From: a virus
IMG/VR virus record: IMGVR_UViG_3300002307_000034
Span: 32,001-96,000 of that record
Direction: 5' to 3' (one strand)
Length of the DNA stretch: 64,000 nucleotides
The translations under genes and the position numbers were made by a program. Every line of letters starts with the position of its first letter. Position 1 is the stretch's first letter. The notes under the pieces are model-generated. The model ran no database searches. It saw only the letters and a list, made by a program, of their open reading frames with translations, and had not been told where the DNA came from. Below are positions 6,999 to 64,000 of the stretch, piece by piece.

Positions 6999-7507
6999 TC
7001 AGGTTGTTTCCAAACTGGAACAAATGTTCCATCGTTGTTTTTTGCATATAATATTGTCTCATTTCTAAGCATAGCATCTAACTCTATTCTACTAGGAATA
7101 TTACTTGCTGTCACATTCCCGTCTTTTCTTGGTCTTCCAATATGTACTGTTTTAAAAAATTCTCTAAGTTTTCTGATATCATTTTCAGAAAATAAATATT
7201 TACCAGGGCGATTAGACCCGTCTAGGGAAAAAGCCCTTTGTGGTTTTTCTATATCACCTGATCTAAGGTGTCTTTTGATTGTATCAACATGTCTATTTAT
7301 TAGCTTGCCAACTTCAGAGATGGAGTAAGCGTGTTGTTTATTTTTCTGAACATCAGAATAGTTATAAGCAACACGCTTTCCCTCTAAGAAATTCCACGCT
7401 ATTATAGTATCATCTGGTCTATTTACTTGTAAAGTTCTATGAAGAACATTATTTAAATAGAAATACAGAACTCTTTGTTGAGATCCTTTTCGATTTTTTC
7501 TAGCCAT
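6992..7507 (-). CDS. helix-turn-helix DNA-binding protein (MerR/excisionase-like)
   Basis: YSISEVGKLINRHVDTIKRHLRSG HTH-like segment, GRPRK basic motif. Confidence 0.65.
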   Translation of the reverse strand: MARKNRKGSQQRVLYFYLNNVLHRTLQVNRPDDTIIAWNFLEGKRVAYNYSDVQKNKQHAYSISEVGKLINRHVDTIKRHLRSGDIEKPQRAFSLDGSNRPGKYLFSENDIRKLREFFKTVHIGRPRKDGNVTASNIPSRIELDAMLRNETILYAKNNDGTFVPVWKQPEW

Positions 7508-8799: not shown

Positions 8800-9234
8800 T
8801 TACTCGTATGAAATTGCAGTAATATGTACAAAAGCTGGGATACCACCAGCAGGAAATGTGCTTGAAGTAATTGTATGCACATCAAAGCTCATTGCATATG
8901 AACTAGTATCAATATTAGTTAAAACTGGAATCATAGGACCTGGTGCAGCTGAGCATTCTACAACAGCACTTACCACTGGTTTATTTTTAAAAGCATTTGG
9001 TGGAACAACAAGATCTAGGGTTTCTTTTGCCCCATTAATTGTAATAGCCACTGTAGTCTGAAAAACAGACATTGCTTGTATTGTACCTGATTGTAAGTAT
9101 GGAAAAACTGAGGCTGAAGCATAATCTCTGCCTTTATAATAATATTGCCCTTTAGACAAAAATTGTTGAACTGATGCCACTTGTGAGCTTAAAGAGCTTA
9201 TTACTGTTGCATCTATAACTACATTACTTGCCAT
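8800..9234 (-). CDS. putative minor virion/tail protein
   Basis: beta-rich, at the end of the tail operon. Confidence 0.5.
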   Translation of the reverse strand: MASNVVIDATVISSLSSQVASVQQFLSKGQYYYKGRDYASASVFPYLQSGTIQAMSVFQTTVAITINGAKETLDLVVPPNAFKNKPVVSAVVECSAAPGPMIPVLTNIDTSSYAMSFDVHTITSSTFPAGGIPAFVHITAISYE

Positions 9235-9259
9235 ATTTTTCTCCTTGTACTATTATACC

Positions 9260-9454
9260 TTATGTTAAATTTGGAACTACAAATACATATCCTACAGACC
9301 AATCAGAAACAGCATTATTGTCTCCGCCAACTGCTTGTACTTGAACAACATATGATGTTCCAGCTTTTAATCCTGTAAGTGTTACAGATGATACTGGTAA
9401 AGGATTTCCTGCTGCATCATATATTATTTGCCCTGGAGTTGCTAATACCATCAT
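9260..9454 (-). CDS. small fibronectin type III-like tail protein
   Basis: VTLTGLKAGTSYVVQVQAV...SDWS Fn3 signature. Confidence 0.65.
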   Translation of the reverse strand: MMVLATPGQIIYDAAGNPLPVSSVTLTGLKAGTSYVVQVQAVGGDNNAVSDWSVGYVFVVPNLT

Positions 9455-11421
9455 GTCACCTGCAAATGATATTCAATATCCATTTGCTGTCCTGAATTTT
9501 TAATAATTGGTGTGGTAAATAAAGATCTACTTGTAAGCTGATATTCTGGTGGAAGAATAACAACTGTAGCTGAAACAGCTTTGGCTGGTGATCCTATTGT
9601 TGCTGTCCCCGTTGTGGCATTTGCAACCACAAATGTATTCTGTGTTGGAACAGAATAAATTGTAAATGTTCCACTATAGCCGGAAGGAGTTATACCAGAT
9701 ATAACCACCTGATTACCGATTGCAAAATTATGAGAACCAGAAGTTGTATATTTTACGTATCCAGAACTTGGTGATGATGGGGTGACTGTTGATATAGCCA
9801 ATGTTCCAGCATACGGATGTCCTGTCCAATAATCATTTGTTACAATCTTTAAAGAATCAAGATATATAACAGATGGTCCTGCTGACATAGTTATGCTTAT
9901 AGAATTTGTAGTTATTCCTGCTGATGGAAAATTTGATGGTAATGGAATTCTTGCTACATTTAATCCTACATTTGTAACAATTCCTGTTGCTGCACATACA
10001 AATGGAGATGAAGAGTTTGTATTGTCTGTAAGATTAACTGTTATTGCAGTATTATTTGCTGCTGATCCAGAATAATATAATAGTAATAAACTATCAGATG
10101 ATGAATGTCCTGTTGTATCCAAAGATATATTATTAATTGATAATGTATCATTAGAATTTAATGCAATATTAAATTGACCATATGTGCTTGGTTGTTGTAA
10201 AGTTGTAGAGTTTAATGACAATGTTCCACCGTATCCATATTGTGTTGATCCAGTTGAATTAGAAGATCCCATGGTTACTACTACTTGATAGTTACCATTA
10301 ATTTGATAAACTGTTCCTGCTCCAGATGGTGTCAATGTTGATCCAGATGCTGCAGTTGCTCCTGTTATATAAACGGAACTTCCTACATTAAGTCCCGATG
10401 CATCTCCAATATTTAAAGTTACATTTGAAGTTCCTGTTAACCATGTATACCCGGATTGTTGTGATAATGCTGAACCATTTATTGTTGTTTGTCCTAATAC
10501 TGATACTTGCGATCCGGTTGATGAACTTGACCATTTACTTAAAGAAGAATCTGTATTTGATTTTTCAGAAAAGCCCGTAAGGTTTCTTGTACTTGCATTA
10601 TTACTTTGTTTTAAATTAATTGGAATAATGCCAACTTCAGATATTCTTGCTGATAAAGCTGGATCTAGAGTAGCTTTTACAATTATTTCATTATTAAAAA
10701 TTGAATTTCCTAAATTATTAGTTAGCACTGTTAATAATGCTGTATTACTTGAAACTACAGTAGAAGATACATCTGTATTAGTTTTTAAATATTGAACTTG
10801 GTATCCATATGATTGTACTGCAGTTCCTCCGGAAACATACGATCCTGTAGCTGCATTTGTTATTGTAAATTGTGATGTAGAAGCGGAAGCAATAACTCCA
10901 GTTATATTATATGTTGCTGGATTTACTCCAGTAATGACTACTGTTTCTCCGACTGTAAATGAATTTGTTGCTGTATAGGTAATTGTTCCACCTGTTGCAG
11001 AAACATTTGTTATTGTAGCCTGCAATGGCTGAATTGATGTTATGTTATATGTTCCATTAAATACTGAATCTATACCAGTCACTTGTATTTTATATCCTGA
11101 TGTTAGCAAAGGTGATGATATTGATTTAAAGTTTAAATATGCAACATTGCTTGTTAATTGTTTATTAAGAATAGCAAATTTAGGACTCATTTTTGCATAT
11201 GACTTTAAAGTAATTGGCATTCTATCTATTTCATAATATAAAACTTTATCTGTTAATGCAGGTGATACTGGAACAGCACCTATGGTTAATCCACCCGCCC
11301 AGTCAATGCTTGACTTAGCCAGGTGTCTATTAATCATATAGAAACCATTTGTAGTAATTAAATTTTCTTGCTCGGCAATAATTTTACCGTTTGATTTTAT
11401 TATATATTTACCTTTTATCAT
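9451..11421 (-). CDS. minor tail protein with repeated small beta-barrel modules
   Basis: EQENLITTNG N-terminus; repeated V.I.G..P..YNG.F.I modules; Ser/Thr-rich. Confidence 0.7.
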   Translation of the reverse strand: MIKGKYIIKSNGKIIAEQENLITTNGFYMINRHLAKSSIDWAGGLTIGAVPVSPALTDKVLYYEIDRMPITLKSYAKMSPKFAILNKQLTSNVAYLNFKSISSPLLTSGYKIQVTGIDSVFNGTYNITSIQPLQATITNVSATGGTITYTATNSFTVGETVVITGVNPATYNITGVIASASTSQFTITNAATGSYVSGGTAVQSYGYQVQYLKTNTDVSSTVVSSNTALLTVLTNNLGNSIFNNEIIVKATLDPALSARISEVGIIPINLKQSNNASTRNLTGFSEKSNTDSSLSKWSSSSTGSQVSVLGQTTINGSALSQQSGYTWLTGTSNVTLNIGDASGLNVGSSVYITGATAASGSTLTPSGAGTVYQINGNYQVVVTMGSSNSTGSTQYGYGGTLSLNSTTLQQPSTYGQFNIALNSNDTLSINNISLDTTGHSSSDSLLLLYYSGSAANNTAITVNLTDNTNSSSPFVCAATGIVTNVGLNVARIPLPSNFPSAGITTNSISITMSAGPSVIYLDSLKIVTNDYWTGHPYAGTLAISTVTPSSPSSGYVKYTTSGSHNFAIGNQVVISGITPSGYSGTFTIYSVPTQNTFVVANATTGTATIGSPAKAVSATVVILPPEYQLTSRSLFTTPIIKNSGQQMDIEYHLQVT

Positions 11422-55647: not shown

Positions 55648-56256
55648 TTACCTTTTTACATAAATGATATTTACTTGATGTCCATATATATCTACATTAG
55701 ATCTAGCAAATTCTTTAAATCCATATCCCGCCAAATAATTTTCTACATCAGTTGCTAACCATTGATTCTTCCAAAATTCTTTTGTTTCAACTTCAATATG
55801 TATACTAGACACCTCGTCTAATAATTTACTAGCACCTTGTAGAACTTCTCTATTTGCTCCTTCACAATCAATCCATAAAGCAATATTTGAGTTCATCCCT
55901 GCAAAATCATCTAACGCTACAGCTTCTACTTTTACATATTTGTAATCAATATCTTCTGCACGTTTCATAATTGTATTATGCCCAGTGTTTTCTGGATCAA
56001 ATCTTGTATCTATTTGAAACATAACTATATCATCTTGATAAGATACAGCTTTGTTTATATATTTTACTCCAGGATGCATGCTATCTTTAAACTTCTCATA
56101 TACATATGGACTTGCTTCAAAAGCATATGCTCTAATTCCCGCCATTGCCATTGTATTAGAAAATTCTCCTGCATGTGCTCCAACTTCAATAGAAACATTT
56201 GGAACAAGATCTTTTTGCATACGGATAAAAGTTGATGCTAATTCTTCTTGAGTCAT
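55648..56256 (-). CDS. FkbM-family methyltransferase
   Basis: EVGAHAG, AFEA, LWIDCEGA..EVLQGA, IEV. Confidence 0.88.
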   Translation of the reverse strand: MTQEELASTFIRMQKDLVPNVSIEVGAHAGEFSNTMAMAGIRAYAFEASPYVYEKFKDSMHPGVKYINKAVSYQDDIVMFQIDTRFDPENTGHNTIMKRAEDIDYKYVKVEAVALDDFAGMNSNIALWIDCEGANREVLQGASKLLDEVSSIHIEVETKEFWKNQWLATDVENYLAGYGFKEFARSNVDIYGHQVNIIYVKR

Positions 56257-56408
56257 ATAACAATTATACTACATCGTTTTTAATGTCACCTATACGTCGG
56301 ATTTCAATTTGACAAAATGTTAATATTTTTTTTATTTGTATGATCCGCTTTTTCGAGTAACTTAAAATTAGACATAGTGTGCCCATTTGTCTAAATATTC
56401 AGCCATTT

Positions 56409-56493
56409 TGTGACCCAAATCACAAAGATTTTTTGCAAATTGTCTCAAATGTCCGTTTTGCGACTTGATTTTGTCAGTGTACTAGTGTAGTAT
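56409..56493 (+). promoter_or_regulatory. early promoter module 1: CRP box, -35 TTGATT, TGTCAG element, -10 TAGTAT
   Basis: TGTGAcccaaaTCACA 56409-24; TTGATT 56465-70; TGTCAG 56472-77; TAGTAT 56488-93. Confidence 0.8.
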
Positions 56494-56549
56494 TTATACT
56501 ATAAGAGTTAATAAAGGTTATTAGCACTTCTTAAAGAAAGGTTATCCAA

Positions 56550-56693
56550 ATGATAACACTAAACTATACTTCTCTAGATTCTGACAATTCCGCCCGTTCT
56601 TTTGTGGGGTACTTCCATACAGAGAAAGCGGTCAATGACTACCTTGACCTAGTCTCAATAGATGAGACAATCCTCACAGTCAGCGTGATATAA
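56550..56693 (+). CDS. 47-aa hypothetical early protein
   Basis: GAAAGG RBS, MITLNYTSLDSDNSARSF... Confidence 0.65.
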   Translation: MITLNYTSLDSDNSARSFVGYFHTEKAVNDYLDLVSIDETILTVSVI

Positions 56694-56759
56694 ATCACAA
56701 AACCTGACTGGTCAGATACGGCGTGTCGCATTGACTTTCGCCAAATAGTGTGATAGTAT
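56684..56759 (+). promoter_or_regulatory. early promoter module 2: CRP box, GGCGTGTC box, TTGACT-N17-TAGTAT
   Basis: CGTGAtataaaTCACA 56684-99; GGCGTGTC 56720-27; -35 56731-36; TGn -10 56754-59. Confidence 0.8.
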
Positions 56760-56815
56760 TCCACTATAAAATTAAATAAGAATAAATAAGAAAGAGTCTA
56801 GAAAGGACTACTATA

Positions 56816-57034
56816 ATGAATAACTACTATAATGAAATCCGCAAGGACATCGCTAAAGACTTTGGTCTAGAGGCTGGTGGCTATGCTCCACTTCCTGCCC
56901 CTGCCTTGTCTATCGTTCAGGCTATGCGCCTTAATGCTAAGTACCCTAGCGAGGCGTTATCTACACGCCCTAGCGATAAGGCTATACTAATCGCTAAGCG
57001 ATACGCTAGCCTAAAGAAAGTCTGGTCTAACTAA
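56816..57034 (+). CDS. hypothetical early protein
   Basis: GAAAGGA RBS. Confidence 0.7.
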   Translation: MNNYYNEIRKDIAKDFGLEAGGYAPLPAPALSIVQAMRLNAKYPSEALSTRPSDKAILIAKRYASLKKVWSN

Positions 57035-57120
57035 TGACTATAAATAGCCTAACACTAATACAACTAGGTCTAATGTCGTACCTAGTTGCTAAACTAATAA
57101 CAACTAAGAAAGAGGACTAA
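57034..57120 (+). CDS. 28-aa hydrophobic peptide
   Basis: TAATG overlaps at both ends; MTINSLTLIQLGLMSYLVAKLITTKKED. Confidence 0.5.
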   Translation: MTINSLTLIQLGLMSYLVAKLITTKKED

Positions 57121-57320
57121 TGAAAACTAAGGTTATCACTACCGCCCTACTAATAACGCTAGTACCTGCCACCGCACAGGCTAGCACTCACCACCACCGC
57201 ACACCTAGAACTTATTCGGTGTATAATACAAATGTGTATAGAGGACAGATGACTAAGATGAAATCTGCTCTCGGTATCCACTACCATACATACACACCTA
57301 AGCACCACAAGAAATACTAA
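57120..57320 (+). CDS. small secreted-like basic His-rich protein
   Basis: signal-peptide-like MKTKVITTALLITLVPATAQA. Confidence 0.6.
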   Translation: MKTKVITTALLITLVPATAQASTHHHRTPRTYSVYNTNVYRGQMTKMKSALGIHYHTYTPKHHKKY

Positions 57321-57333
57321 GAAAGGAAAACTG

Positions 57334-57510
57334 ATGACTATGACTTATGTACCTACTTGGGAGCGTGTCTATAATCCTTGGGACACAGAACCCGATTTCT
57401 ATGATTTATCACAAATTGAAGAAGAAGAAAACGAAAAACAAAAAGATGAAATGTCTATCGAAGAAATTGCCGAAGAAGAACTAGAATTAGAAGAGGATTT
57501 TGACCTATGA
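57334..57510 (+). CDS. 58-aa highly acidic protein
   Basis: GAAAGGA RBS; 22 D/E versus 3 K/R. Confidence 0.7.
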   Translation: MTMTYVPTWERVYNPWDTEPDFYDLSQIEEEENEKQKDEMSIEEIAEEELELEEDFDL

Positions 57511-57674
57511 TGAGCCGTAAAGACTATGTAGAAACTGCACGAATTCTAAATAAATATAAATCAGTAATAGATGAAAAAGATTTTTTAGATTTAGCAGATG
57601 ATTTTTCTTTTATGTTTGAAAAAGACAATCCTAATTTTATTGCAGATAAATTTTTAGAGGCTTGCAATAAATAA
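57507..57674 (+). CDS. 55-aa protein, paralogue of 58327..58521
   Basis: MMSRKDYV...F..MFEKDNPNF..DKFLEAC. Confidence 0.75.
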   Translation: MMSRKDYVETARILNKYKSVIDEKDFLDLADDFSFMFEKDNPNFIADKFLEACNK

Positions 57675-57686
57675 AAAAATCGAAGA

Positions 57687-57858
57687 TCGTTGAAGCTTTG
57701 ACTATAATGGTTGAAGCTTCAACTATTTTTTTGGGCGGGGTTTCAATCCCCGCCCGCACTCGGGCGTGTCGCATGTGGTATAAGTCACAAAGTACACGCT
57801 CCATATATTGAGACTACTTGCAAGTATACTAGACAGTAGCGATTTTATGTGTTATACT
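57687..57858 (+). promoter_or_regulatory. early promoter module 3: MarR-like pair, GC hairpin/26-bp repeat, CRP box, IclR-like box, TACT-N4-AGTA, TAGACA-N17-TATACT
   Basis: motifs at 57687-704 and 57708-25, 57748-73, 57774-89, 57798-814, 57815-26, 57830-35, 57853-58. Confidence 0.75.
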
Positions 57859-57902
57859 TCCAGTATTGAAAAATTAAATAAGAAAAAAGTTAGTTAATCA
57901 AC

Positions 57903-57942
57903 GGCGTGTCGCCTTGATTTTCCGCAGAAAGTCTGCTAAACT
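57903..57942 (+). promoter_or_regulatory. promoter GGCGTGTC-N3-TTGATT-N17-TAAACT
   Basis: same geometry as the 56720-56759 promoter. Confidence 0.75.
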
Positions 57943-57966
57943 AACGATAGTTAAAAATAAAGAAAG

Positions 57967-58170
57967 GTGGTCAAAATGACTACACTAACAATAAACGAAG
58001 TATGCGTTAAGCATACACCTCATAAAGAATCTATTTCCGTGATTGCTCACGATTTCGATTCTGCCGATTATTTCACTTTTTGTGAAAATTGTGAACAAAA
58101 CATAGAAAGTTTTTCTTTCTATGATGATGACAGAGGTACTGTCTATACTAAGTGGACACTTAGTAAGTAA
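57967..58170 (+). CDS. hypothetical early protein (CxxC)
   Basis: GAAAGG RBS; likely ATG at 57976; TFCENCEQNI. Confidence 0.7.
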   Translation: MVKMTTLTINEVCVKHTPHKESISVIAHDFDSADYFTFCENCEQNIESFSFYDDDRGTVYTKWTLSK

Positions 58171-58187
58171 AGAAAGGATAAACTTAA

Positions 58188-58322
58188 ATGATAGCAATTA
58201 AATGTGATGAATGCGGTGGTGCAGGATTTATTTTTTTTGGTAATGAAAATGATTTTGATGTAATGAAATGCGATTGCATTTCTGATGATGTTGATTTTAC
58301 TGATGGAATTATGGGGGCTTAA
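58188..58322 (+). CDS. 44-aa zinc-finger-like protein
   Basis: GAAAGGA RBS; CDECGGAG...CDC. Confidence 0.7.
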   Translation: MIAIKCDECGGAGFIFFGNENDFDVMKCDCISDDVDFTDGIMGA

Positions 58323-58326
58323 ATAA

Positions 58327-58521
58327 ATGATGACTAGAAAAGACTATGTGAGTGTAGCCAATATTCTAAATGATATTGCTAAGCCTAATATGGATATGGT
58401 TCCTTTTGAGGATTTAGTAGCAGAGTTTGCAGATATGTTTTTTGCAGATAATCCTAATTTCTCTCCCACCCGTTTTGAAATGGCTTGCTATGGAAATGAT
58501 GAGGGTGGTGATGTTAAATGA
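58327..58521 (+). CDS. hypothetical protein, paralogue of 57507..57674
   Basis: MMTRKDYV...FADMFFADNPNF..TRFEMAC. Confidence 0.75.
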   Translation: MMTRKDYVSVANILNDIAKPNMDMVPFEDLVAEFADMFFADNPNFSPTRFEMACYGNDEGGDVK

Positions 58522-58622
58522 AAAACGAAGATCCATTTGGATTTGCAAATGCAATTCAGCTTGATCATCTTAATTTTGAACAATTAAAAGAATTAGAAAA
58601 GATTTTAGATAAAATTAAATAG
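58518..58622 (+). CDS. 34-aa hypothetical protein
   Basis: ATGA overlap; MKNEDPFGFANAIQLDHL... Confidence 0.6.
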   Translation: MKNEDPFGFANAIQLDHLNFEQLKELEKILDKIK

Positions 58623-58628
58623 CTGATA

Positions 58629-58783
58629 AGTATAATTATGCAAATCACTGCATAATTATGCAAGCCCCGCCCGCACTCGGGCGTGTCGCATTACGGTGTG
58701 AGATTTGTCACACAGGTTGAGCGTCTCAAAATGTGGAATTACTTACGAGTAGGTAGAATAATGTCAGTGGTATCGTGTATAAT
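58629..58783 (+). promoter_or_regulatory. early promoter module 4: tandem ARG-like boxes, 26-bp repeat, CRP box, IclR-like box, TACT-N4-AGTA, TGTCAG-N10-TATAAT
   Basis: 58629-42 and 58649-62; 58665-90; 58697-712; 58723-39; 58740-51; 58762-83. Confidence 0.8.
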
Positions 58784-58819
58784 TCCTACTATTAACAAGA
58801 AAGAAAGAAGGTAGCAAAT

Positions 58820-59041
58820 ATGCTAATCTCAACAGCCCTAGAAGGCAAATATGTAAAGTCCTCAAAAGGACAAGGAATAATCCAGTACGCAGATTTCCGC
58901 AAGGATATGCGACACTCTACGCCCGAAGGCTATCTTGCTTATGCTTGCAAAGTACGCCCACACTGGAACGGCGAAGGATTTCCTAAGCCTGATTTCTGGA
59001 CAACAATTTATGTCGGACTTGATTCAGAATTGGTGGACTAA
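58820..59041 (+). CDS. hypothetical early protein
   Basis: GAAGG RBS downstream of module 4. Confidence 0.7.
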   Translation: MLISTALEGKYVKSSKGQGIIQYADFRKDMRHSTPEGYLAYACKVRPHWNGEGFPKPDFWTTIYVGLDSELVD

Positions 59042-59146
59042 ATGGGTAATATCGCAGATGAATTATGGAATAATTATAAAGAGGCTACTTGGAACACAAT
59101 GTCAGTGCCACCTGCTACAATATGGGAAACAAAGGAGAACGACTAA
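59042..59146 (+). CDS. 34-aa peptide containing an internal promoter
   Basis: MGNIADELWNNYKEATWNTMSVPPATIWETKEND; stop overlaps the next ATG. Confidence 0.5.
   Translation: MGNIADELWNNYKEATWNTMSVPPATIWETKEND
59100..59121 (+). promoter_or_regulatory. TGTCAG-N10-TACAAT promoter
   Basis: exact spacing; AAGGAG RBS and ATG at 59146 downstream. Confidence 0.75.
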
Positions 59147-59355
59147 TGGAATATAGTTATGTAATTACTACACACTATGACGGCGATTATTTTTCGTCGC
59201 ATAGATTTTCAGATGCACTAACTGCTGTAAATGCGTTTAATAAATGCGTAGATGTAGGAGATGCAAAAGAATATGCAACTTATAATCTATTAGAGCCAAA
59301 TGGCAAAATGCATACACTTAATTTTTATAGAAATGGGGCAGTAAATGGGAAGTAA
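59146..59355 (+). CDS. hypothetical early protein
   Basis: ATG at 59146 with AAGGAG; part of ORF 59089..59355. Confidence 0.7.
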   Translation: MEYSYVITTHYDGDYFSSHRFSDALTAVNAFNKCVDVGDAKEYATYNLLEPNGKMHTLNFYRNGAVNGK

Positions 59356-59644
59356 TCTAGCAACAGAATTAGCTGGAAGTGAATTAGGTTTATCTATGGA
59401 AGATAGTATTGGTATGCACTTGCGTGTTAATCACTACCCTCCCGTCCCAATTTCTATGGTACAGCCTTGCATAGATGCTATTGACGCATATTGGGAAGAA
59501 GACTTAAATCGTGAGATCGAATTACCTGAAGGCGTATCTTGGCGTGGCAATACCTATGCACCCGCATATGCTATTATTGAGAATCATCACTTGGAAGCCT
59601 GGTGCCAGGAAGATGAATACTTAGATGAAGAAGAATTGGTGTGA
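59345..59644 (+). CDS. hypothetical early protein (acidic)
   Basis: HL..NHYPPVP...C..AI, HHLEAW. Confidence 0.75.
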   Translation: MGSNLATELAGSELGLSMEDSIGMHLRVNHYPPVPISMVQPCIDAIDAYWEEDLNREIELPEGVSWRGNTYAPAYAIIENHHLEAWCQEDEYLDEEELV

Positions 59645-59706
59645 TGTAACTCACACCAGACACGCCCATAGTGGATTGGACAAAGGTTGTTCCGCTATGG
59701 TAAAAT
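59640..59706 (+). promoter_or_regulatory. early promoter module 5: CRP box, inverted GACACGCC, TGGACA-N18-TAAAAT
   Basis: TGTGAtgtaacTCACA 59640-55; GACACGCC 59659-66; -10 59701-06. Confidence 0.75.
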
Positions 59707-59744
59707 ACCACCTATAAACAACAACAAAAGAAAAGAGAAATAAA

Positions 59745-59909
59745 ATGACAGTATCAAACAAGACATACGCAGTAGGCGACCTATTCACCACACAGAAGTC
59801 AAAGGTGACAGGCACTATCAAGGAAATCAACCCTATCAACGCAAGCACGACCCGTGTGCTGCTTGATGTCGAAGGCAAAGACCGCTGGACAACAGTATCG
59901 TTTGCGTAA
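59745..59909 (+). CDS. 54-aa small beta-barrel-like protein, paralogue of 60479..60649
   Basis: TYAVGDLFTTQKSKVTGTI..I.P....TRV.L. Confidence 0.75.
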   Translation: MTVSNKTYAVGDLFTTQKSKVTGTIKEINPINASTTRVLLDVEGKDRWTTVSFA

Positions 59910-59921
59910 TTAAATAATAAT

Positions 59922-59954
59922 TGGCAGGAGGGTGTCAGACCCTCCTGCTATACT
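59922..59954 (+). promoter_or_regulatory. TGTCAG-N10-TATACT promoter embedded in a hairpin
   Basis: GCAGGAGGGT-gtcag-ACCCTCCTGC; TGTCAG 59933-38, TATACT 59949-54. Confidence 0.7.
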
Positions 59955-59991
59955 ATCTCTCATAACAAACCCGAATAGAAAGTAGAAATAA

Positions 59992-60408
59992 ATGTCAAGA
60001 GCAATCACAGTAAAGGTGGCAACACCAAAGGTAATCAAGGCTTTGGAAACAAAGTTGGCAACAATTAAAACTGATTATGCTAATCAGGAAAAGAACGAAG
60101 CAAAGTATCAGAAGGACTTTGAGAAGTATCGCAAGGCTCTTGCTGATTATGCTATTGCTAACATCAAGAAAGCAACTAACATCAGAACTAATCATCGCTC
60201 TTGGAATAATAGCCTTAACATTGACTTTGATGTTGATACACAAGGTGCTAATTTTCCTGCTGAGCCACAGCGTGAGTTTGAGCAACTACACGCACACACA
60301 TACAAGGAAATTGTAGAGGACATCTCAAATGCTCTCACAATTCTAAAAATGACAGACGAGGAAACAGTAAATGCTTCTACTATGAAGCAAATCGCTAAGT
60401 ATCTCTAA
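59992..60408 (+). CDS. hypothetical early protein (coiled coil)
   Basis: 138 aa, biased codons. Confidence 0.8.
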   Translation: MSRAITVKVATPKVIKALETKLATIKTDYANQEKNEAKYQKDFEKYRKALADYAIANIKKATNIRTNHRSWNNSLNIDFDVDTQGANFPAEPQREFEQLHAHTYKEIVEDISNALTILKMTDEETVNASTMKQIAKYL

Positions 60409-60415
60409 ATAATAC

Positions 60416-60445
60416 AAGACCTGAGCATAGTCTTAAAACTGCTCA
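60416..60445 (+). ncRNA. candidate H-type RNA pseudoknot in an intergenic leader
   Basis: S1 AAGAC/GTCTT, S2 TGAGCA/TGCTCA, loops of 1, 2 and 5 nt. Confidence 0.55.
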
Positions 60446-60478
60446 CACTATAACCCGAAATAGAAAAGGAAAAAAATA

Positions 60479-60649
60479 ATGACTTTGCAAGGATACACAT
60501 ATCAAATTGGTGATTTATTCACAACATCTAAAACTGGAGTAACTGGTCGCATCATTAAGTTTGCACCAATCTCAAATAAAGTAACTCGTGTTCAATTGCA
60601 ATTAGCAAATGGCTCAAAGCGATTTGCTATGGTTAAAACTTCTATCTAA
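60479..60649 (+). CDS. 56-aa protein, paralogue of 59745..59909
   Basis: AAAGGA RBS; TYQIGDLFTTSKTGVTGRI. Confidence 0.75.
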   Translation: MTLQGYTYQIGDLFTTSKTGVTGRIIKFAPISNKVTRVQLQLANGSKRFAMVKTSI

Positions 60650-60742
60650 TAAAATAATTAAAGTGGTCGTGAGTGATAACAGGTAAGTGTTATAGTAGCC
60701 TATAACCACCACTTTATTTTTTGGATCTGCAGCTGCTAATAA

Positions 60743-60881
60743 TAGTTGAACATTCAACCAAAACCCCGCCCCGCACTCGGGCGTGTCGTTACGAATGTGA
60801 TTTTAATCACTTGAATTTTGTCTCAAATAATAAGATTAAGGGCGTGTCGAGTGGACAAATGTCAGTGCGTTTTGGTATACT
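60743..60881 (+). promoter_or_regulatory. early promoter module 6: MarR-like box, repeat, CRP box, IclR-like box, GGCGTGTC, TGGACA, TGTCAG-N10-TATACT
   Basis: 60743-60; 60764-88; 60796-811; 60820-36; 60841-48; 60852-57; 60860-81. Confidence 0.8.
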
Positions 60882-60912
60882 AGCGACAGTTAAACAGAAA
60901 GAAGGTCTATTC

Positions 60913-61029
60913 ATGAACCTAGATGAATTTAAGACACATGTCCTTGCAACACGCAAGGCTTCACAGGCAGAAGCGATGTCAGTCCTATCTGCTACAATAC
61001 AACCTCAACCCGAAAAGAAAGAAGAATAA
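60913..61029 (+). CDS. 38-aa peptide containing an internal promoter
   Basis: GAAGG RBS; MNLDEFKTHVLATRKASQAEAMSVLSATIQ... Confidence 0.65.
   Translation: MNLDEFKTHVLATRKASQAEAMSVLSATIQPQPEKKEE
60977..60998 (+). promoter_or_regulatory. TGTCAG-N10-TACAAT promoter
   Basis: exact spacing, upstream of the gene at 61035. Confidence 0.7.
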
Positions 61030-61034
61030 ATAAA

Positions 61035-61514
61035 ATGGAAAATCTAACAATGTCTCAGGCTCGTGTAATTATTGACGAAGCCGTTGCAAATTTTGATGGA
61101 AACCTATCAGATGAAACAATTTCTCAAATTGTTTTTGCTATGAATGAAAATTTACAGATTCGTGATTACACCCTAGGCTTACCTATTAACTATGGAGTCG
61201 AGCATATGGTACAATTCTTTACTTATATCTCAGACCGAATTCCATCGGATGAGGCATATGCGGTTAATACCGTATTAGCAATGTTTGAGTATGAATTAGG
61301 CGAAACAGATATTGCTTCCCACCTCATTCAATCTGTAAATGGGACTAGAGTCTACTCTCTTGCCCTTCTTGCGACTCGTGTTATAAATGCAGGATGGCCA
61401 TCAGATTCTTTCGTTGCAATGCGTAACGAATTGGCACCCAAAGTTATTGCAAATATCGAAGAATTAGGAGATGAGGTAATTGGTCAAAAATTGGATGAAA
61501 ATGAACTTGTCTAA
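61035..61514 (+). CDS. DUF4192-like protein
   Basis: QIRD..LG, YSLALL..RV..AGWP pattern recalled from this actinobacterial family. Confidence 0.6.
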   Translation: MENLTMSQARVIIDEAVANFDGNLSDETISQIVFAMNENLQIRDYTLGLPINYGVEHMVQFFTYISDRIPSDEAYAVNTVLAMFEYELGETDIASHLIQSVNGTRVYSLALLATRVINAGWPSDSFVAMRNELAPKVIANIEELGDEVIGQKLDENELV

Positions 61515-61617
61515 AGTTCAACGCATACAAGAATTGCGACGCAGTAATGCGTCGCAACCTCTACGCAATAAAAAGAAATACACCCGAAAAAACAAATATA
61601 AGAAAGTAGAAGAATAA
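61501..61617 (+). CDS. 38-aa basic peptide
   Basis: MNLSKVQRIQELRRSNASQPLRNKKKYTRKNKYKKVEE. Confidence 0.65.
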   Translation: MNLSKVQRIQELRRSNASQPLRNKKKYTRKNKYKKVEE

Positions 61618-61881
61618 ATGTCAAATCTCTCAACCGCCCTTGCACTACAAGAAGGAATTTCTGAAATTGTCTTCTCTGATGAAGTAATGATTTATGCAGC
61701 TGAAATTGCAAAAAATGCAGATTTTAATCCTGAAGTTTTAGAATTAATAATGAAATACGCTTCTACACTATCCGCAGGCGTTGCAACAAAAGTTGTAGAA
61801 ATTGTAATGCCTAAATCTGAATTTAGTTCTATGATGAAAGAACTTAAAGAAATGCAAGAGATTGGAGATTCAATTGAATAA
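61618..61881 (+). CDS. hypothetical early protein
   Basis: abuts the previous stop. Confidence 0.7.
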   Translation: MSNLSTALALQEGISEIVFSDEVMIYAAEIAKNADFNPEVLELIMKYASTLSAGVATKVVEIVMPKSEFSSMMKELKEMQEIGDSIE

Positions 61882-62071
61882 GTCAACTGGACAAAACATT
61901 CACACAAAATGGATCCAAGATGCATTGGGTGTGAGCACTGCAGTAGCACTACGTGTGCAAAAAGAAATTAATCAAAACTATGATTTAGATTGGTCTGAAG
62001 CAGATATGGACGAAATCGAATTTACTGCAATGTTGGCGTTTGAAAATATGAATGTAACACATAGCTTTTAG
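61874..62071 (+). CDS. hypothetical early protein
   Basis: GGAG then TTG at 61874, in frame with ORF 61862..62071; LDWSEA motif. Confidence 0.6.
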   Translation: MNKSTGQNIHTKWIQDALGVSTAVALRVQKEINQNYDLDWSEADMDEIEFTAMLAFENMNVTHSF

Positions 62072-62155
62072 TTGCGACGGGTGAGAGAGACGGTGGGTCC
62101 AAGGGTTGGGCCCACTGTTACCACTTGACAAATGCAAATTTTTGGGGCGGGGCTT

Positions 62156-62187
62156 TGTGATGCAAATCACATGTGATTAAGATCACA
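62156..62187. promoter_or_regulatory. two abutting perfect CRP/GlxR-type boxes
   Basis: TGTGAtgcaaaTCACA-TGTGAttaagaTCACA. Confidence 0.75.
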
Positions 62188-62301
62188 TGCATAAGGTTTG
62201 ACCAATCACCCTTACGAATGATAGAATCATCCAATGGAATCAATAATGCTCGTGCCCGTTTTGTTCTTTTTGTCACCATTTATGATGGCTTTTCTAGCGT
62301 A

Positions 62302-62367
62302 TGTGTTTTATGTCACAATTAAAATACGTTGATAGGCTTGACGAATGTCAGTCCAGTCTGATATACT
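62302..62367 (+). promoter_or_regulatory. early promoter module 7: CRP-like box, TTGACG, TGTCAG-N10-TATACT
   Basis: TGTGTtttatgTCACA 62302-17; TGTCAG 62346-51; TATACT 62362-67. Confidence 0.8.
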
Positions 62368-62398
62368 TACGGCTTAACCAAAATGAAAGAAGGTCAAA

Positions 62399-63433
62399 AT
62401 GAACCAAAATACAGTCCATCAATCTGAAATCGAATCCGGCGAAGCGTCTTTTGCTATTGTCGAATCTCGTTCCAATCCTGCTTGGCATAGTTTTGCTAAC
62501 AAGGTTTTCGATAAGGATATCGAAACTCCTACAGTTACAGAAATTATGGATGCTGCTAAATTATCTAATTGGAATGTTCGACTTGAGCCTATTGCCGAAT
62601 TAGTTCCTGACTACAATATGATTAGCGATTCTTATCTTGTTGTCCGTGATAATCCATATGGTAAAGGTAAGGATGTTCTTGCAACAGTAGGCTCACGCTA
62701 TAAAGAAGTGCAGAATGAAGATTTATTTGCATTTGCAGAAAATCTACACGACTCCAATCCTGACGTTAAAATTGATTCAGCAGGTTCATTTAAGAGTGGA
62801 CGTGTTGTTTATGGTTCTTGGTCTGTACCTAACCAATTAGTTCTTGACCCAAAGGGTGCTAACGATGTAACGAATCTATATTTGATTTGCTACACCTCAC
62901 ACGATGGGTCTGTGTCTGTGCAGGTTGCTTTAACGCCTGTCCGTGTTAAATGTCAAAATACACTTAATTTTGCTATGAAACGTGCTAAGCAATCTTTCAA
63001 GTTGCGTCATACTCAAACAGTAGACGGAAAAATTGCACAGGCTCGTGAGGCTTTAGGTTTATCTATTGCATATATGGATGAATTCTCTAAGCAAGCGAAT
63101 GAATTATTTACTCGTGAGGTAACAGCGTTAGATTTTAGCAAAATCATCACAACACTTTATCCTAAGCCTGAATCAGATAAAAAAGGTTCGCTTAAAAAGT
63201 GGGAATCAAAAGTTGTTTTGCTTGACGAGTTGTATCACAATTCACCTACCAATGAAAATATCAAAGGTACTGCTTGGGGCGTAGTTAATGCATTAACCGA
63301 ACGCCTTGATTATTATCGCACAGCCCGCAAGGGTAATGGTGAATCGCTTGTTTATTCTGCAAGTGGTTTTGACCCTGTAATAAATGCAGAAAAAAATAAA
63401 ATTGTTAAAGCGGTTTTGCAACTAACTGCTTAA
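62399..63433 (+). CDS. DUF932/DUF945-family phage/plasmid-like protein
   Basis: PAWH, V..RY..VQN...F, SHDGS, TPVRV.CQNTL, RHT, GTAWG..NA.TE..D. Confidence 0.85.
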   Translation: MNQNTVHQSEIESGEASFAIVESRSNPAWHSFANKVFDKDIETPTVTEIMDAAKLSNWNVRLEPIAELVPDYNMISDSYLVVRDNPYGKGKDVLATVGSRYKEVQNEDLFAFAENLHDSNPDVKIDSAGSFKSGRVVYGSWSVPNQLVLDPKGANDVTNLYLICYTSHDGSVSVQVALTPVRVKCQNTLNFAMKRAKQSFKLRHTQTVDGKIAQAREALGLSIAYMDEFSKQANELFTREVTALDFSKIITTLYPKPESDKKGSLKKWESKVVLLDELYHNSPTNENIKGTAWGVVNALTERLDYYRTARKGNGESLVYSASGFDPVINAEKNKIVKAVLQLTA

Positions 63434-63439
63434 TAAATC

Positions 63440-63471
63440 GGGGGCGAGAAATCGCCCCCACATTTTTTTTT
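63440..63471 (+). terminator. intrinsic terminator
   Basis: GGGGGCGA-GAAA-TCGCCCCC followed by a T9 run. Confidence 0.9.
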
Positions 63472-63487
63472 AGATCAAGAGCTGCAA

Positions 63488-63641
63488 TTTATAAATATGC
63501 AAAGCGTTGCATAATTATGCATCCTCGGGGTATGTGATGTAAAACACAATTACGATATGTCCGAATTATCACTTGAATACCAATTACGAAGATCAAATTA
63601 CGAATTACGATTGGACATATGTCAGTGGTATATGTTAGAAT
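63488..63641 (+). promoter_or_regulatory. early promoter module 8: tandem ARG-like boxes, CRP-like box, AATTACGA x4, TGGACA, TGTCAG-N10-TAGAAT
   Basis: 63488-501 and 63508-21; 63533-48; 63548-610; 63620-41. Confidence 0.8.
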
Positions 63642-63667
63642 ACCCTATATTCAACGAAAGGAAATAT

Positions 63668-64000
63668 ATGCCAAATTGGGTCTATAATGGTTTAACAATT
63701 GAAGGTAAGCCAGAATCTATAACTAAATTAAAAGAACAAATGAATACTCCCTTTGTGGATTATATTGAAGCCAATGGTGATTTAGCCTTTGGTGTTAAAG
63801 AGACTAAGTATTCTAATCCTGTATTTTCATTCCGTAATATCATTGCTCCCACCGACCTTGAAGCATACAAGGCACAGCCTGTTCGTTCTGAACTTGATTG
63901 GAATGACCCTAATTGGTGGGCTGATATTCAACGTCTATCTGAAACAGATAATTCTTGGTATAACTGGAACATGCGTAATTGGGGAACAAAATGGGATGTG
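63668..64000 (+). CDS. DUF1281/YubB ferredoxin-like family protein, truncated by window end
   Basis: MPNWVYNGLTIEG...FSF.NII.P...WYNWN..NWGTKWDV. Confidence 0.8.
   Translation, partial: MPNWVYNGLTIEGKPESITKLKEQMNTPFVDYIEANGDLAFGVKETKYSNPVFSFRNIIAPTDLEAYKAQPVRSELDWNDPNWWADIQRLSETDNSWYNWNMRNWGTKWDV

Follow-up and report, generated by a model that had tools for sequence, protein, structure and literature searches.

In actinobacteria, the PafBC activator serves promoters with the 22-nt in vivo motif tGTCgg(N10)tA(N3)T (PMC8635444), a motif that has also been named RecA-NDp (PMC6789036). PafB contacts positions -23 to -28 of these promoters, the "-26 element", where its residues R46 and R50 read the GTC triplet, and PafBC wedges itself between region 4 of SigA and the DNA, a mode of action termed "sigma adaptation" (PMC8635444); PafBC itself is activated by the binding of single-stranded DNA (ssDNA) to its WYL domains (PMC11804915). 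All that is known so far of PafBC and sigma adaptation concerns the cellular response to DNA damage. In other phyla, WYL regulators have been linked to phage defence, with none described in that role in Actinobacteria according to a 2023 paper (PMC10693628), and in the literature that we searched, outside which many subscription papers fall, there was no paper linking PafBC or RecA-NDp promoters to phage genomes. Here, we describe an array of PafBC-like promoters of the form TGTCAG-N10-TAnnnT in a 64,000-nt stretch of phage DNA (the window, meaning that whole stretch), which comprises bases 32001-96000 of IMG/VR record IMGVR_UViG_3300002307_000034, a genome of 104,950 bp that is 97% complete.

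Coliphage 186 and CTXphi are wired to the host SOS response via LexA boxes. The same design is found in GIL01 (PMC6182141), and the present phage would resemble such LexA-box phages in coupling its expression to a DNA-damage sensor of the host; they differ in that they work by repression, mostly at the lysis-lysogeny switch of temperate phages, whereas here the promoter array of a block of small genes would be activated. A second comparison is offered by the middle promoters of T4, in which a MotA box at -30 is combined with a sigma70 -10 and AsiA and MotA bring about "sigma appropriation". In both systems an activator box at a fixed distance replaces or supplements the -35, and the phage uses a layout of box and -10 to time a class of genes, a parallel that has been drawn before (PMC8635444). 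The two T4 proteins are phage-encoded, however, and remodel region 4 of sigma, whereas the present genome yielded no factor of its own and its box is that of the host.

An initial annotation of the window, made from its letters alone, had reported eight exact TGTCAG-N10-TAnnnT sites, all on the + strand. An exact search of the window returned these same eight (P1 to P8 in Table 1) against a chance expectation of 0.78, with a maximum of 4 in any of 100 dinucleotide-preserving shuffles. The finer description held up as well: a purine-rich ribosome-binding site (RBS) and an ATG follow 25-56 nt downstream of the -10 at each site, five of the eight window sites read TGTCAGTG, and the four -35 hexamers (TTGATT, TGGACA, TTGACG and TGGACA) are real, each with an 18-nt spacer to the -10. 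Across the whole genome, the pattern occurs nine times on the forward strand, zero times on the reverse strand and zero times in a reversed control; the ninth site lies at genome positions 96349-96370, 349 nt beyond the end of the window. The annotation had also called for a count of the motif elsewhere, and the whole-genome search places all nine sites at 88.47-96.37 kb of the genome, that is, inside 8 kb. The TGTCAG hexamer itself is found only 29 times on both strands of the genome, and in nine of these 29 cases TAnnnT follows at exactly N10. All nine sites thus have a canonical SigA -10 (TAnnnT) with the -26 element TGTC(A/G)G exactly 10 nt upstream, which puts TGTCAG at exactly -28 to -23 when the -10 is set at -12 to -7. 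The extended -10 TGn is present at six of the nine, and a -35-like hexamer ending 2 nt before TGTCAG at four, the remaining five being without one. Two further stretches depart from the class by a single mismatch: TGTCGT-N10-TAAACT at 57074-57095, followed by an RBS and the ATG at 57120, and TGACAG-N10-TATACT at 58128-58149, followed by an RBS and the ATG at 58188.

These sites occupy a distinctive part of the genome. All genes from the genome start up to window position 56256 are on the minus strand, among them those for DnaE, class II ribonucleotide reductase (RNR), portal, capsid and tail as well as sugar- and sulfate-modification genes, and they are followed by the sole + strand block of the genome (~88.3-100.55 kb of the genome; 56.3 to ~68.5 kb in window coordinates), which holds ~35 small genes, mostly orphans. 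Judging from gene size, orientation and promoter density, the block genes are presumably early. The actinobacterial SOS-box core GAAC-N4-GTTC has no match in the block and only two in the window, at 7018 and 43235.

The promoter class extends well beyond this genome. Through the DUF932 protein encoded in the block, 19 related IMG/VR loci were found, and the 18 low-GC ones were used for site counts; each of these carries 2-19 TGTC[AG]G-N10-TAnnnT sites, with ~170 in forward versus 4 in reverse orientation. The spacing is strict, with 171 forward sites at N10 in this genome and the 18 relatives together and at most 14 at any other spacer from 6 to 14. The 151 unique sites yield the consensus aaTGTC(A 70%/G 30%)GT(G/C)(G/C)nnTmTGcTAtAAT, in which position 5 of the hexamer is A in 105 sites and G in 46, and GTG comes next in 91. 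Scanning IMG/VR with the strict pattern added at least 80 further loci (738 kb) with at least 541 dominant-strand sites, as against 7 in the opposite orientation and 4 in the control; nearly all of the loci listed have a GC content of 34-43% and proteins in common with this phage. Overall, at least ~100 related low-GC phage loci in IMG/VR carry at least ~660 unique sites, almost all on one strand, and in four near-complete relatives the sites fill a single block of 6-13 kb. At the orthologous promoter of the DUF932 gene, 15 of 17 phages retain both TGTCRG and the -10, with spacer bases that drift; one exception, relative L028, has TGACAG. We therefore regard the sites as almost certainly a real and conserved class of promoters.

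By its sequence, the phage class TGTCRGTG-N8-TAnnnT is the RecA-NDp/PafBC consensus. It shares with actinobacterial PafBC promoters (PMC8635444, PMC6789036, PMC11804915) the TGTC(A/G)G element with its invariant GTC, the exact 10 nt, the TAnnnT and the placement at -28 to -23; in addition, GTG often comes next, and the motif is non-palindromic and strand-specific. Unlike cellular PafBC promoters, the phage sites form arrays of 9-31 in one gene block, lie in an AT-rich context with a near-consensus TAtAAT, an extended -10 in most cases and a -35 in about half, and give rise to mRNAs that have leaders with strong RBSs.

The genome has a GC content of 33.6% and encodes a WhiB (its profile match, at 42.7 bits, exceeds the cut-off); its portal shares ~51% identity with the portals of Streptomyces BE/BK-cluster phages (Stanwilliamsviridae). 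Because of the WhiB and the Streptomyces-phage-like portal, the host can be assigned to the actinobacteria, as far as gene content tells. Kinship to the BE/BK-cluster phages is confined to structural genes, and the phage sits in an uncultured low-GC group; for the block, GenBank phages gave no match at the level of near-identity. Outside the window, eight tRNA genes were found at genome positions 8927-11417 (L009), for Arg-tct, Lys-ttt, Leu-taa, Gln-ttg, Asp-gtc, Met-cat, Ile-tat and Asn-gtt, mostly serving A/U-ending codons, which fits a phage GC content below that of its host. The 34% GC and the eight tRNAs for A/U-rich codons rule out a mycobacteriophage identity.

A candidate host order is the low-GC freshwater Nanopelagicales, which we reached with a sequence that we take to be the 16S probe acI-852; the scan gave Nanopelagicaceae records. 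The annotation had suggested looking for pafBC in the predicted host lineage, and this candidate order does carry it: two tandem WYL genes of ~310-340 aa are present in 5 of 5 Nanopelagicaceae genomes tested. In IMCC25003, the first of these genes encodes WYL and WCX domains and aligns over its full length to the M. smegmatis PafB of the RNAP-PafBC structure 7p5x (E 5e-40), and the second encodes HTH_PafC (85 bits) and WYL. The heptapeptide RMFERDK, which includes R46 and R50, is identical in the IMCC25003 PafB-like protein and M. smegmatis PafB. Downstream of pafBC, IMCC25003 has tatC and a Hel308-type helicase gene, presumably the same order (pafBC-tatC-helicase) as in M. tuberculosis.

The motif, too, is present in this order. 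The bipartite sequence TGTCAGTGGCGCCTGCTACCTT lies 187 nt upstream of recA-recX and recurs there across Nanopelagicales genomes, and other recurrent sites precede carD, a gene for a small LysM protein (which we take to recall mycobacterial ChiZ), DUF6504 and a PD-(D/E)XK nuclease gene adjoining pafBC. In 41 Nanopelagicales genomes the strict motif occurs 249 times, versus 61 for the reversed control (4.1-fold), and the 467 kb around Nanopelagicales 16S genes contain 1 loose match; considering this near-absence, the motif is no general feature of strong promoters in the order. In Nanopelagicaceae, the strict motif often stands 6-8 nt before an ATG (L136 G004:818000-830000, L137 G005:417000-435000, L262-L271), which implies leaderless mRNAs, and the genes concerned cluster in variable regions, where they include an N6/N4 DNA methylase, an HATPase_c_3 protein, CAAX proteases and a trypsin-like peptidase. 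Some of these sites are back-to-back divergent pairs. The PafBC regulon of Nanopelagicaceae may thus reach defence-island-like genes.

Within the phage itself, no reader of the element came to light. The annotation had proposed as an alternative a phage-encoded WYL activator outside the window, and this found no support in a search of the whole 105-kb genome: WYL, HTH_PafC and Sigma70_r4 profiles gave no match, and a phmmer comparison of host PafB and PafC with all six-frame phage open reading frames (ORFs) found no homologue (best E 0.63). A Pfam and PHROGs scan of the block proteins likewise returned DUF932, DUF1281_C and two PHROGs of unknown function, with no match to a regulator, and most of the block proteins tested had no family match, the exceptions being DUF932, DUF1281_C and a methyltransferase.

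Taken together, these results lead us to favour the reading that the PafBC of the host, for which the Nanopelagicales are a candidate order only, probably recognizes the -26 element of the phage promoters. Each promoter joins a SigA-type -10, mostly in its extended TGn form, to TGTCRG at -28 to -23. The host PafBC heterodimer would bind ssDNA via its WYL domains and, in this state, insert between sigma region 4 and the DNA, so that RNA polymerase (RNAP) with SigA could start at promoters without a -35. In this way, the alarm by which the host induces recA and further damage-response genes would also start, or boost, expression of the phage's entry genes. Promoters with a -35 box 1-2 nt upstream of TGTCRG, about half of the total, can probably fire with SigA alone as well. 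Such a dual mode, in which SigA alone would give basal initiation at promoters with a -35 and PafBC would start or boost transcription in the presence of ssDNA, is likely from the promoter layouts. Indeed, with a -35 in about half of the promoters and an extended -10 in most, basal activity is likely even in the absence of PafBC, which may boost the phage promoters rather than being required. A broader proposal, to which we would give about an even chance, is that in a whole, widespread lineage of uncultured actinophages of ~100 kb the entry-gene block has come to be controlled by the ssDNA-sensing PafBC system of the host, with the alarm set off by incoming or damaged DNA serving as the phage's start or boost signal. 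As for the view of the initial annotation, that the DNA-damage/ssDNA sensor of the host drives phage early genes, it is partly supported by the match to the PafBC consensus, the conserved strict spacing and a candidate host order with both pafBC and the motif at recA; its mycobacterial framing falls with the 34% GC and the placement in an uncultured low-GC group.

Several observations count against a role of PafBC, or against the Nanopelagicales as hosts. PafBC promoters have been described without a -35 (PMC8635444), and about half of the phage promoters have one. Among the 151 unique sites, 125 have the extended -10 TGn and 70 have a -35-like hexamer (at least four of six positions matching TTGACA) at a spacer of 17-18 nt, compared with 0-12 at other offsets upstream of TGTCRG; promoters of this kind may need no activator. 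The other exception at the DUF932 promoter, L023, is without TGTCAG yet keeps a -35 and the extended -10. Of two structurally related Streptomyces phages, Karimac has 0 sites and Muntaha 1; the motif is therefore not a trait of the wider phage family. Of the published Actinomycetota genomes sampled, 144 in number, 96 have an HTH_PafC match above the cut-off (102 of 151 if G161, G042, G129, G059, G089, G187 and G109, which are unpublished, are included), so that not every actinobacterium has PafBC. A comparison of 20 kb of phage DNA with 101 Nanopelagicales genomes gave no match, and the phage WhiB is ~33% identical to the WhiBs of 41 Nanopelagicales genomes, a value that is uninformative (its Atlas look-up returned viral clusters only). 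Finally, PafBC needs ssDNA, the presence of which at the very start of infection is in doubt.

In one alternative explanation, no activator would be involved and the sites would be strong SigA promoters with an extended -10 and often a -35, in which TGTCRG is a spacer element touched by host RNA polymerase, RbpA or CarD, or is kept by descent via promoter duplication. The frequencies of TGn and of the -35-like hexamer speak for it, as does the L023 promoter, which looks functional without TGTCAG. It leaves unexplained, however, why six invariant bases should stand at a fixed distance over hundreds of sites in diverged phages while the adjacent spacer bases drift, and in Nanopelagicales the motif marks recA and other specific genes and is nearly missing near rRNA operons, which speaks against an element for general polymerase contact. 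We consider this explanation improbable. Somewhat better placed, although still unlikely, is the idea that TGTCRG is read by another protein, be it an unrecognised phage DNA-binding protein (a delayed-early activator or a later-acting repressor) or a non-PafBC host factor, and that the likeness to RecA-NDp reflects convergence or partial mimicry. Shared operators are found at early promoters of many phages; a novel regulator could hide among the block proteins, which are nearly all orphans without a Pfam or PHROG match, and canonical -35/-10 promoters without TGTCAG in the block, such as TTGACT-17-TAGTAT at 56731, would be able to express such a factor first. Yet the core, its R degeneracy, the following TG or TC and the exact N10 all match the host motif, the candidate host order has the identical arrangement at recA, and the phage is without any WYL, PafC-HTH, sigma-r4 or PafB/PafC-like sequence. 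Moreover, P1, the first promoter of the block, already belongs to the TGTCAG class.

A decoy function seems very improbable as the main role of the array. According to this idea, the replicating phage genomes would titrate activated PafBC and so blunt the damage or defence response of the host, with transcription of the small genes being secondary. Consistent with it are the 9-21 sites per genome, multiplied by the phage copy number, and the presence of an island DNA methylase and the HATPase_c_3 protein among the leaderless motif genes of the candidate host. However, every site has a -10 at a productive distance and lies on the coding strand with an RBS and ATG at the distance given above, neither of which a pure decoy needs. 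Titration is also compatible with reading by PafBC and not exclusive of it.

If host PafBC does read these sites, they would be the first phage promoters served by a host WYL activator, and they would provide a simple, testable model for the timing of early genes in abundant uncultured actinophages, as well as hundreds of natural promoter variants, with and without a -35, for dissecting sigma adaptation. If phages carry PafBC-type promoter arrays, the ssDNA alarm would be a contested signal that is used by both sides.

Table 1. Promoters of the TGTCAG class and the gene block that contains them (window coordinates).
Feature	Position	Strand	Elements	Associated gene or content
Part of + strand block inside window	56257..64000	+		Holds all TGTCAG promoters of the window
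P1	56472..56493	+	TGTCAG (-28..-23), N10, TAGTAT; TTGATT 56464-56469, 18-nt spacer	47-aa gene 56550-56693
P2	58762..58783	+	TGTCAGTG-N8-TATAAT, without -35	73-aa gene 58820-59041
P3	59100..59121	+	TGTCAGTG...cTGcTACAAT, extended -10, without -35	69-aa gene 59146-59355
P4	59933..59954	+	TGTCAGAC...cTGcTATACT	138-aa gene 59992-60408
P5	60860..60881	+	TGGACA (-35, 60852) + TGTCAGTG + tTGgTATACT	38-aa gene 60913-61029
P6	60977..60998	+	TGTCAGTC...cTGcTACAAT, without -35, inside 38-aa gene	159-aa gene 61035-61514
P7	62346..62367	+	TTGACG (-35, 62338) + TGTCAGTC + cTGaTATACT	DUF932 gene 62399-63433
P8	63620..63641	+	TGGACA (-35, 63612) + TGTCAGTG + aTGtTAGAAT	243-aa gene from 63668

Some of the individual promoters have features of their own. 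P3 is situated within a 34-aa ORF (59042-59146). At P4, a 12-bp hairpin (59922-59950; -23.4 kcal/mol, z -6.2) presents the core of the -26 element in its 5-nt loop, GUCAG, and its 3' arm extends into the -10; a hairpin as a hallmark of the TGTCAGAC subclass was rejected, as a stem of at least 6 bp is found in just 2 of 118 such sites. In the ESM Atlas, the 159-aa protein encoded downstream of P6 is similar, with a feature score of 0.95, to DUF4192 clusters from Actinomycetota and from their phages, which we treat as a lead only. P7, the DUF932 gene and an intrinsic terminator at 63440-63470 make up one unit; a tie of DUF932 to plasmid leading regions was considered and dropped, as no supporting paper was found in the literature searched. 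The 243-aa gene driven by P8 carries DUF1281_C and extends beyond the end of the window.

Other elements are concentrated in the same block. Six GCGTGTCG boxes, all on the + strand, are found at 56721, 57764, 57904, 58681, 60781 and 60842 (0.44 expected), the last of them being carried by P5; they sit just 5' of -35 hexamers or after GC-rich hairpins such as that at 57733-57755. Five perfect TGTGA-N6-TCACA palindromes, corresponding to the CRP/GlxR-type consensus, occur at 56409, 58697, 59640, 62156 and 62172 and in the block only, where ~0.1 are expected. Lastly, positions 57334-57510 encode a very acidic 58-aa protein whose C-terminal half is rich in E and D and which is a candidate DNA mimic or anti-restriction protein.

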